From the NCBI GenBank assembly GCA_030390025.1, contig CM059432.1:80974001-81038000 (forward strand): a stretch of 64,000 nt of DNA, written 5' to 3'. The translations under genes were made by a program, and so were the position numbers. Positions within the stretch are counted from its first letter, which is position 1; each line of letters begins with the position of its first letter. The notes under the pieces are model-generated. The model was not told the origin of the DNA. It made no database searches and saw only the letters and a program-made list of their open reading frames with translations. Origin of the DNA: Squalus acanthias. Taxonomy: Eukaryota. Shown piece by piece: positions 58,828 through 62,075 of the stretch.

Positions 58828-59273
58828 ATCATAGAATCACAGAATAGTGCAGCACAGAAGGAGGCCATTCGGCCCATTGAGTTTGTGCTGGCTCTTTCGA
58901 AGAGCAATCCAGTTAGTCCCACTCACCCGCTCTTTCCTGATATCCCTGCATTTTTTTTCTCCTTCAAGTATTTATCCAATTCTCTTTTGGAGGCTACTAT
59001 TGAATCTGTATCCACCATGCTATCAGGCAGTGCATTCGAAATCCTAACCACTATTTGCATTAAAAAGTTTTTCCTCATATCACCTCTGGTTCTTTTGCCA
59101 ATCACCTTAAATCTGTGCCCTCTCGTTATCGACCCTTCAGGCATTTGGAAACTTCCTGGCTTTTGTACTCTCTGCCTCTATTTATAAATGTGGAGATGCC
59201 GGTGTTGGACTGGGGTGGACAAAATTGAGAGGTCGCACAACACCAGGTTATAGTCCAACAGTTTTATTTGAAA

Positions 59274-59315
59274 TCACAAGCTTTCGGAGTTATCGATTGC
59301 TCCTTCCTCAGGTGA
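59274..59315 (-). ncRNA. Minimal type I hammerhead ribozyme (left arm)
   Basis: Minus strand: UCAC-CUGAGGA-A-GGAGC-AAUCGAUA-ACUCC-GAAA-GCUU^GUGA. One stem II mismatch. Confidence 0.75.
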
Positions 59316-59358
59316 AGTAAATCTATATATGCTTTGGCGATTCTGTATCTAATTTACT

Positions 59359-59400
59359 TCACCTGAGGAAGGAGCAATCGATAGCTCCGAAAGCTTGTGA
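59359..59400 (+). ncRNA. Minimal type I hammerhead ribozyme (right arm)
   Basis: UCAC-CUGAGGA-A-GGAGC-AAUCGAUA-GCUCC-GAAA-GCUU^GUGA. Stem I UCAC/GUGA, stem II GGAGC/GCUCC, palindromic AGCU stem III. Confidence 0.85.
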
Positions 59401-62075
59401 TTTCAAATAAAACTGTTGGACTATAACCTGGTGTTGTGCGACCTCTCAATTCTATTTATAAAGCCCAGGATCCCATATGCTTTATTAACTGTTTTGTTAA
59501 CCTGTCCTGCCACCTTCAAAGATTTGCGCACAAGCACCTCCTCAGTGTCTCTGTTCGTCCACCCACTCTAAAATCGTACCATTTAGTATGCATGGTCTCT
59601 CCTCATTCTTCCTTTCAAAATGAATCACCTCACACTTCTCTGTGTTGAAATTCATCTGCCATGTGTCCGCCCATTCCACCAGCCTGTCTATGTCTTCTTG
59701 CAGTCTATTACTATCTTCCTCACTGTTTACTACACTTCCAAGTTTCGTGTCATCTGCAAATTTCAAAATTGTGCCCTGTACACCCAAGTCCAAGTCATTT
59801 AATGTACATCAAAAACAGCCGTGGTCCTAGTACTGAGCCGTGGGAACCCCACTGTATACCTCCCTCCAGTTCGAATAACAGCCATTCATCACAACTCTCT
59901 GTTTTCTATACCATAACCAATTTTTTATCCATGCTGCTACTGGCCCTTTTATCCCGTGGGCTTCAATTTTGCTAACAAACCTAATATATGGTACTTTATC
60001 AAATGTCTTTTGAAGGTTCATTTACACAACATCAACTGCACTGCCCTTATCCACCCTCTCTGTTACCTCATCAAAAAACTCAATCTTAAGTTAGGCAAAC
60101 ACGATTTGCCCGTAACAAAAATCCATGCTGGCTCTCCTTTATTAGTCCTCATTTGTCCAAGTGGCTGTTAATTTTCCCCCGGATTATTGTTTCTAAAAGC
60201 TCCCCCACCACTAACGTTAAACTGACTGGCCTGTAGTTACCAGGTTTATCCTTCTCCTCTTTTGAACAAGAGTGGAAGATTTGCAATCCTCCAGTCCTTT
60301 GGCACCATCCCTGTATCTAAGGAGGATTGGAAGATTGGGGCCAGCACCTCCACCATTTCTACCCTTACTTCCCTCAGAACCTAGGATGCATCCCACCCAG
60401 ACCGGGTGACTTACCAACTTTAATTATCGCCAGCCAGTCCAGTACCTCCTTTTTATCTATTTTTATCTCATCCAGTATCCCAGCAACCTCCTCGTTTACC
60501 ATGGCTTTGCCAAAGTCCTCTTCCTTGGTAAACACCGATGCAAAGTACTCATTTAGTACAACAGCCATGCCTTCTGCCTCCACCAGTAGTTCTCCATTTT
60601 GGTCCCTAATCTGCCCCAATGCTCCACTGACGACCCTTTTACTGTTACTATACTGTGCATATAGACGACCTTTGGATTCCCTTTTCTGTTAGCCACCAAT
60701 CTATTCTTCTACTGTCTCTTTGTCCCTCTTATTTCCTTTTTCGCTTCTGGTTTTTACTTTTTATATTCAAATTCTCCCTTGTATTATCAAGCTGACATCT
60801 GTCATACGCCCCCTTTTTCTGCTTCATCATGCTCTCTAATTCTTCATCATCCAGGGAACTCTGGCTTTGGTTGCCCTCCCTTTCCCCCTTGTAGGAATGT
60901 ACGTAGACTGTACCCGAACCATCTCCGCTTTAAAGGCTGCCCATTGCTCCATTACATTTATGTCTGCCAGTCTTTGAGTTCAATTTACTTGGGCCAGATC
61001 CCTCCTCAATTCGCTGAAATTAGCTCTCCTCCAGTTTTTTTATTCTAGATTGCTCCTTGTCCTTCTCCATAACTAATCTAAACCTTACAATACTATAATC
61101 ACTATTCCCAAGATGCTGTCTAACTGTGACATTCTCCACTTGACCCACCTCATTCCTCAGGACTAGATCCAGCAATGCCTCCTTCCTTGTTGGGCAGGAA
61201 ACATACTGATCCAAGAAAATTCTCCTTAACACACTTCAGAAATTCCTCCCCTGCTCTGCCCTTAACACAATCACTGCCCCATTCAATATTGGGGTAGTTA
61301 AAGTCTCCCATTACTCTACTTTCTCATCTCTGTCGTTCTTGCAGCCCTCAGTAATTTCTTCACAAATCTGCTCCTCTATCTCCTTCCCACTATTTGGTGG
61401 CCTATAAAATACACCAAGTAGCTAATAATTCCTTTATTGTTTCTCAACTCCAACCAAATAGATTCTGTCTTTGATCCCTCAAGGACATTCTCTCTATCTA
61501 GCACTGTAATATTTTTTCCTTAGGCAAAACTGCTACCCCTCCTCCTTTTTTCCCCTTCCCTATCTTTCCTGAATACTTTGTACTTGGGAATATTAAGCAT
61601 CCAATCCTCCCCTTTTTGTGCCAGGTCTCCGTTATTGCCACTACATCATATTCCCACATGGCTATTTGCCCCTGCAGCTCACCGACCTTATTAACCACAT
61701 TTTGTGCATTTACACCCTTGCACTCCAAACCTAACTTAGACCTCTTTGTATTTTCGATGATCCCACCTAATTCTGTGTTATTTCTAACTCTAACTGTCTC
61801 TCCCAGTCCTCTGAGCACCTTGTTTCTACTTTTTAAAACTACATCCTGGCATAGCATGGCCAAATTAGTTTAAACCCACCCCCACAGCACTAGTTAACTG
61901 TCCGCAAGGATATTAGTCCCAGCTTTGTTCAGGTGCAACCCATCCATCTTGAACAAGTCCCTTCTGCCACAGAACTGATCCCAATGTCCCAGGAATCTGA
62001 CGCCCTTCCTCCTGCACCATGTCTCTAGCCTCACAGTAACCTGCCATATCTTCCTATTTCTACTCTCATTAGCAC

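Follow-up and report, generated by a model that had tools for sequence, protein, structure and literature searches.

The window, that is, the whole stretch of 64,000 nucleotides from Squalus acanthias analysed here, holds at 59177-59462 a short fold-back insertion. The insert measures 262 bp between the two copies of a perfect 12-bp target-site duplication, the left one (59177-59188) lying within a hot-spot site of a CR1 and the right one (59451-59462) having its first base in common with the end of the insert's pLTR. It opens with a 34-nt tail of a Penelope-like element (PLE) on the minus strand (59189-59222, one CpG-type change), which in a full copy is found just 3' of the pLTR and 5' of the ORF start. 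The tail is followed by an arm on the same strand (59223-59322), by a 29-nt loop (59323-59351) and by a second arm on the plus strand (59352-59451). The two arms are inverted 100-nt copies of each other with a single mismatch, at 59290, and only the left arm is tailed. The size of the insert, the perfect duplication, the two arms with one mismatch, the loop and the one-sided tail, as well as the location inside a CR1, had been claimed in a first-pass annotation made from the letters alone, and all were borne out. The computed hairpin of the insert reaches -201 kcal/mol (z = -29.5 against 200 shuffles).

Comparison with sibling copies revealed what the arms and the loop consist of. The tailed arm represents the last 96-99 nt of the pLTR, while the supposed loop is the right arm's own upstream continuation on the plus strand, so that the tail-less arm, loop included, covers ~130 nt of the 3' part of the pLTR up to its end. 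A foreign spacer was ruled out, as the loop is native pLTR sequence both in sibling copies and in L062, a near-full copy of the element. The joint between the two arms is head to head, and a 3-nt microhomology (AAT, 59320-59322) is found there when the insert is compared with its siblings.

The insert disrupts an old antisense CR1 fragment (59140-60100, minus strand, ends approximate) within its RT coding region; this fragment is ~74% alike to another CR1 at 56650-57604. No empty orthologous allele could be distinguished from the CR1 paralogues, and no host gene was recognised on inspection of the 25 stop-to-stop frames of at least 150 aa in the window, those that could be placed being repeat-derived. 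Elsewhere in the window, an older tailed single-arm copy of the same PLE family (49685-49844, minus strand, ~90% alike over 125 nt) carries a hammerhead core that reads CUGACGA. From their translations, we take the frame at 28668-29240 (minus strand) to be part of a Harbinger-like transposase, and that at 21488-22543 (plus strand) to be part of the RT of a different LINE clade.

Assignment to a Penelope-like element family

At 97.8% and 98.5%, the two arms closely match the ends of L062, a locus composed of an inverted 2.9-kb arm followed by pLTR, ORF, pLTR and tail. The L062 ORF contains an RT (Pfam RVT_1, E 2e-9), and its nearest named relatives are shark proteins (85-92%), so that a cartilaginous fish is the most likely host; a search of PDB sequences gave no match under E 0.4. 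L062 is frameshifted in the endonuclease and Pfam gave no GIY-YIG on this ORF, so the endonuclease motifs were taken from sibling copies, many of which are open through the ORF end, and in which the GIY-YIG residues (CCHH, R, H, E and N) are all present. Upstream of the GIY-YIG domain, the linker of the family ORF contains a CX4CxxC motif. A CX2-5CxxC linker before GIY-YIG is characteristic of the Neptune and Nematis type and is absent in Penelope and Poseidon, according to PMC8557442. The linker, together with the vertebrate and deuterostome relatives, suggests that the family is of Neptune type.

The insert consists of pLTR-end sequence of an element whose single ORF combines an RT with a C-terminal GIY-YIG endonuclease bearing the CCHH motif, as is typical of EN+ PLEs, and its layout comprises an inverted 5'-truncated copy, a 30-40 bp tail at one end and a target-site duplication. 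Complex insertions of EN+ PLEs have been described as an inverted 5'-truncated pLTR with a one-sided tail of 30-40 bp (PMC8557442, PMC3846280), and share with the insert the head-to-head pLTRs, the duplication of ~12 bp and TATA/Inr-like motifs; in the present insert, however, the two copies are only ~100-130 nt long and the ORF is gone. Of the two alternatives raised in the first-pass annotation, the former, a PLE insertion of young age and extreme truncation, gains support from the match of the arms to the ends of L062. Judged from its sequence, the insert is a pair of 5'-truncated pLTR ends of a young, apparently Neptune-type PLE, joined head to head, one of them tailed. It is a real, young and ordinary PLE stump, with a layout already in print (PMC4209133, PMC8557442, PMC3846280). 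The last 34 nt of the arm have 15,636 exact copies in the 3.7-Gb genome.

Target site, arm layout and 5' ends across the family

We then compared insertions across the family. Their flanks form a palindrome, approximately CYCTGGY-N12-RCCAGRG, with TG-N16-CA as the preferred site. A profile derived from 37 distinct sites, with offsets left free where the duplication is not 12 nt, clearly separated the 22 sites held out from random DNA (p 2e-11), with 7 of these 22, sites of older subfamily copies included, scoring at background. Of 20,000 controls, no more than a rounding fraction reach the score of the insert's own site (12.5 bits). TG at -4/-3 and CA at +3/+4 each occur in 28 of 36 fold-backs, against a background of 7.6%, in a set that has repeated CR1 sites. 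The two half-sites are kept equally relative to the tail side (28/36 each), and among exact 12-nt duplications TG and CA are each present in 10 of 14. Overall, duplications are 12-13 nt long in 35 of 59 cases.

The CR1 position hit by the insert is used repeatedly: 324 tail-less ends are found there genome-wide in one orientation, both orientations occur, and inspection assigned 9 of 75 unbiased insertions to it, while 6,642 exact empty copies of the insert's CR1 site are present in the genome. The perfect target-site duplication is real but common to hundreds of independent insertions. At least three more hot spots, two CR1-like sites and a short repeat, were seen in other repeats and are used repeatedly by the family, the loci concerned being L045, L058, L060, L104 and L105; L034, L037 and L089; and L050, L051, L065, L067 and L073. 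The targets of older-subfamily copies (L020, L021, L022, L025 and L030) lie outside the palindromic profile and may share another motif, a hint that specificity changed over time.

The arm layout was evaluated in an unbiased set, namely the first 100 of the 15,636 end matches (contig C1, 0-17.5 Mb), from which three L062 matches and groups under 89% identity were omitted. This set resolved into 75 insertions, 43 of them fold-backs and 32 single arms. Every one of the 43 fold-backs carries a tail on exactly one arm, and in 39 of them the other arm ends within -5 to +14 of the pLTR end. In selected sets, the same one-tail arrangement was found in 31 of 35 (three with no tail, and one, L121, with two) and in 8 of 8 fold-backs, and a further set had a tailed partner arm in 17 of its 19 cases. 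Complete single arms (n = 30) are tail-less in 22 cases and tailed in 8, and many of the tail-less ones have their own duplication; tail-less single arms being frequent, the pLTR end seems to be a priming site in its own right. The arms are identical in 26 of 30 fold-backs and differ by one change in the remaining four, against a mean of two differences between copies. Moreover, stem II and its loop are identical within 27 of 30 fold-backs, compared with 14% between copies, so that both arms of a fold-back derive from one template. The lengths of the two arms are correlated (rho 0.69, n = 42; 1.0, n = 8; 0.57, n = 19), which speaks for coupled synthesis, and among 62 unequal pairs the tail-less arm is the longer in 43 (p 0.003).

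The 5' ends are also distributed unevenly. Measured from the pLTR end, 23 of 114 lie at -94 to -99, against 1.5 expected, and none at -100 to -105; a subfamily indel at -100 can inflate the calls at -99, yet 19 of 114 are still at -94 to -97. In the independent set of CR1-site insertions, in which the flank resembles the element closely enough to blur a few of the endpoints, 9 of 98 fall in the same interval (2.1 expected, p 3e-4). The tailed arm of the insert ends at this pile-up, at -96 to -99. Position -95 corresponds to 59356 in the tail-less arm, an A within an initiator-like motif; a TATA-like box in the loop (59324-59330) precedes it by 30-32 nt, and we presume from consensus and spacing that the two are a TATA box and an Inr, which would give this stretch a promoter role. 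These positions point to an RNA start near -95, with run-off of the cDNA there. A TATA box plus Inr has been described within a PLE pLTR (PMC3846280), and Inr/DPE elements for Drosophila Penelope (PMC2377424).

Hammerhead motifs and predicted RNAs

The hammerhead core that had been noted on each strand was confirmed, starting at 59363 on the plus and at 59311 on the minus strand, with a stem II of 4-5 bp. The right-arm motif (59359-59400, plus strand) is a minimal type I hammerhead with a predicted cut after 59396, and consists of stem I (59359-59362/59397-59400), the core (59363-59369), a bulged A (59370), stem II (59371-59375/59384-59388), GAAA (59389-59392) and a palindromic stem III region; its variant is the commonest of the family (45 of 246 arms). 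In the left-arm motif, likewise a minimal type I hammerhead (59274-59315, minus strand; predicted cut after 59278), the change at 59290 weakens stem II by a C-A mismatch at its last pair. In the predicted folds, the centroid of the right arm is the hammerhead, whereas the left arm no longer takes this form.

Cervera and de la Pena (2014, PMC4209133) describe the minimal type I hammerheads of PLEs by a CUGANGA and GAAA core, a bulged base, the G10.1-C11.1 pair, a helix I of 4-5 bp and a palindromic stem III. All of these are found in the right arm, which is also predicted to fold accordingly; the left arm has the stem II mismatch. The core, the bulged base before G10.1-C11.1, the short helix I and the palindromic stem III are thus shared with the published motifs, whereas the present family, known from sequence, has a stem II of 5 bp and a loop II that is self-complementary in common variants. 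The same work notes pairs of hammerheads on opposite strands 100-700 bp apart, and links single motifs to truncated PLEs. The Rfam hammerhead families gave no match at E <= 10, with either the whole insert or a single arm as query, and matches to generic hairpin (microRNA) families were rejected, as they were under the gathering score.

Loop II (59376-59383) is the most variable part of the hammerhead in the family, yet it is self-complementary in several common variants, and the lowest-energy dimer pairs through it, which could represent a dimerisation signal or a trap. Computed energies were -36.9 kcal/mol for this loop II-paired dimer, compared with -23.5 kcal/mol for a hand-drawn active dimer and -26 kcal/mol for two monomers. 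In 20 of 246 arms (e.g., L064 and L096), CCGACGA replaces the CUGANGA core, partly with a two-sided change in stem II.

Regarding the cut itself, 8 of 114 5' ends lie in the cut region at -52 to -58 (1.7 expected, p 4e-4), an excess that failed to replicate in the independent CR1-site set (1 of 98). Genome-wide, 200 ends are exactly at the cut, against 105 and 59 at two control positions, as unnormalised counts. The 30 cut-end loci that were inspected include about five joints at stem I microhomology and four point variants, and the pile-up at the cut site is confounded because of such microhomology joints. In a few fold-backs, both arms stop at the cut (L170, L177 and L182/183). Both arms of the insert extend through the cut site, and therefore their template was uncut or re-ligated. 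The hammerheads appear to be mere passengers, carried along with the pLTR when uncut RNA was copied.

The first-pass annotation had expected transcription in either direction to give a 100-bp double-stranded RNA that sequesters the ribozyme. In silico, this holds for read-through RNA in either direction, as the antisense arm would be made first in both and the duplex is predicted to bury the ribozyme; it does not hold for RNA begun at the predicted start of the pLTR, which lies inside the right arm and would include one arm only. As the ribozymes are on opposite strands, no tandem dimer can form in cis. One raw RNA run gave 0 reads on the element, and the other RNA records are contigs in which related sequence is present. 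The mismatch at 59290 would be an A-C pair in the duplex of minus-strand read-through RNA and a U-G pair in plus-strand RNA. An A-C mismatch within a perfect duplex is of the kind favoured by ADAR.

Formation of the insert

We consider it probable that a young Neptune-type PLE left the insert as a one-off product, truncated at the 5' side and joined head to head, likely by twin target-primed reverse transcription; among the routes weighed here, priming from both ends of a staggered cut fits the genomic footprints best. In such a process, an RT-GIY-YIG protein, probably dimeric, would bind the two half-sites of CYCTGGY-N12-RCCAGRG and make a 12-nt staggered cut with 3' overhangs. Both overhangs would then prime cDNA on the same RNA molecule, or on RNA of the same source copy, one at the tail end and the other at the pLTR end. 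The tailed cDNA would have halted at -96 to -99, beside the predicted RNA start, which has an Inr-like A at -95 and, ~30 nt upstream, the TATA-like box. The tail-less cDNA would have been extended to about -130, which would make its template a 3' pLTR or a read-through RNA. The two cDNA ends would finally have been joined via the 3-nt microhomology and filled in. For the family as a whole, we give roughly even credence to the broader proposal that it is a sequence-selective retrotransposon, that its dimeric GIY-YIG endonuclease reads the palindrome and cuts with a 12-nt stagger, that both DNA ends are primed on one RNA at two fixed starts, and that symmetric twin priming normally yields the inverted pLTR and one-sided tail typical of PLEs. 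Most of the stumps would then be cDNAs that ran off at the RNA 5' end, and a smaller number would stop at the hammerhead cut.

The second arm might instead result from fold-back self-priming, in which a cDNA or an antisense-templated intermediate snaps back at a short palindrome, is copied to the pLTR end and has its centre trimmed asymmetrically. Self-priming has been proposed in PMC3846280; followed by loss of the centre, it predicts identical arms, correlated lengths and microhomology, and would account for the present insert unaided; in addition, many joints are near-symmetric or lie on short palindromes, and the tailed arm is the longer in 19 of the 62 unequal pairs. Plain snap-back from the tailed cDNA, however, needs a tailed arm at least as long as the other and cannot yield an insert with ~99 nt on the tailed side and ~130 nt on the tail-less side, nor the 43 of 62 unequal pairs with the same imbalance. 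Very unequal arm pairs, such as 1415/97, 623/89 and 400/58, would demand large one-sided losses, and tail-less single arms make up 22 of the 30 complete ones, many with a duplication of their own, so that we regard self-priming as possible but rather unlikely. The junction could also have been inherited, had reverse transcription started from the tail of a source element with a pre-existing inverted arm upstream and copied through it. Such a source does exist in L062, and it would yield one tail and matching arms; nevertheless, shared joints would be expected, and the joint of the insert is unique, while those loops that are shared occur on different variants. Moreover, the far arm abuts the duplication at the pLTR end in 39 of 43 fold-backs, rather than at variable points, and inheritance is very unlikely.

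Under the other alternative of the first-pass annotation, the fold-back would be a mobile, non-autonomous mini-element with ribozymes, akin to a retrozyme or a MITE, in line with its own duplication, its lack of protein and the 158 loci with similar short fold-backs, a few of which share identical loops. The annotation had suggested a genome search with the loop and its junction, a unique joint indicating a one-off PLE product, and this search returned a single exact match in 3.7 Gb, whereas a MITE-like family would have the same internal junction at many sites. Among the 50 listed of the 158 short fold-backs, loops differ widely and their lengths form a continuum, and the pairs with a common loop (L125/L126 and L128/L130) have different stem II variants and different target sites, and therefore separate origins. 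The unique junction and the varied loops argue for a one-off product and against a mobile mini-element; the loop is, besides, native pLTR sequence. Non-LTR retrozymes (bioRxiv 10.64898/2026.07.22.740005) are likewise protein-free, derived from a pLTR and equipped with a type I hammerhead, but they are head-to-tail tandems with ribozymes on one strand, whereas the insert is head to head with a unique joint. Its opposite-strand ribozymes could not make a tandem dimer in one RNA and would be buried in read-through RNA, and one arm already has a stem II mismatch. A mobile mini-element is thus exceedingly improbable.

Twin priming is known from LINE-1, where each target end primes a cDNA of its own, microhomology serves to join both cDNAs and a duplication is formed. 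The two L1 cDNAs copy adjacent parts of the RNA, while in the insert both would have copied the same pLTR end from two fixed starts, giving a palindrome. Within PLEs, a close parallel is the protein of PAc, the Anolis carolinensis Poseidon element studied by Frangieh et al. (2024, PMC11167929), which is predicted to be dimeric. In vitro, both strands were cut and extended, RT started at two sites that bound the tail, and uncut RNA served as template, in agreement with the model presented here; the fold-back statistics and this in vitro result together favour twin priming. PAc nevertheless belongs to another clade, without the CX2-5CxxC linker, and reportedly prefers AT-rich DNA with ATT, unlike the palindromic motif found here, and the main text of PMC11167929, in the parts drawn on, describes no palindromic site, stagger length or inverted-arm model. 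The palindromic and non-repetitive target of the shark family also differs from the microsatellites reported for Neptune and Naiad.

The origin of the inverted ends and the one-sided tail of PLEs was named as open in PMC8557442. A literature search covering titles, abstracts and selected passages found no paper on twin priming or a palindromic target for PLEs, nor the family footprints described here (palindromic target, 12-nt stagger, one-tail rule and 5'-end pile-up). The insert itself is minor, one among thousands of dead stumps, and the interest lies in these family-level footprints. Being young, present in over 15,000 end copies and marked by a defined palindromic target with a 12-nt stagger, the family offers a ready in vitro substrate. 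Moreover, it explains the litter of short intact hammerhead motifs in such genomes, which should be taken neither for separate ribozyme genes nor for microRNA hairpins.

The pLTR also adjoins or contains other elements. In L024 (1-1430) and L028 (1-1440), a LINE with the end of a long ORF and a Cys/His motif, which we take to be Tx1/L1-like, adjoins the pLTR; the point of contact, ~15 nt short of the pLTR end, is identical in the two loci, and the LINE possibly targets this PLE. In L011 (1631-2524), L194 and L217, a TIR element of ~0.8-0.9 kb, a DNA transposon, sits at the same TTG(G) site of the pLTR (-35), with both ends present in L011 and L194, and so uses one position within the PLE recurrently.
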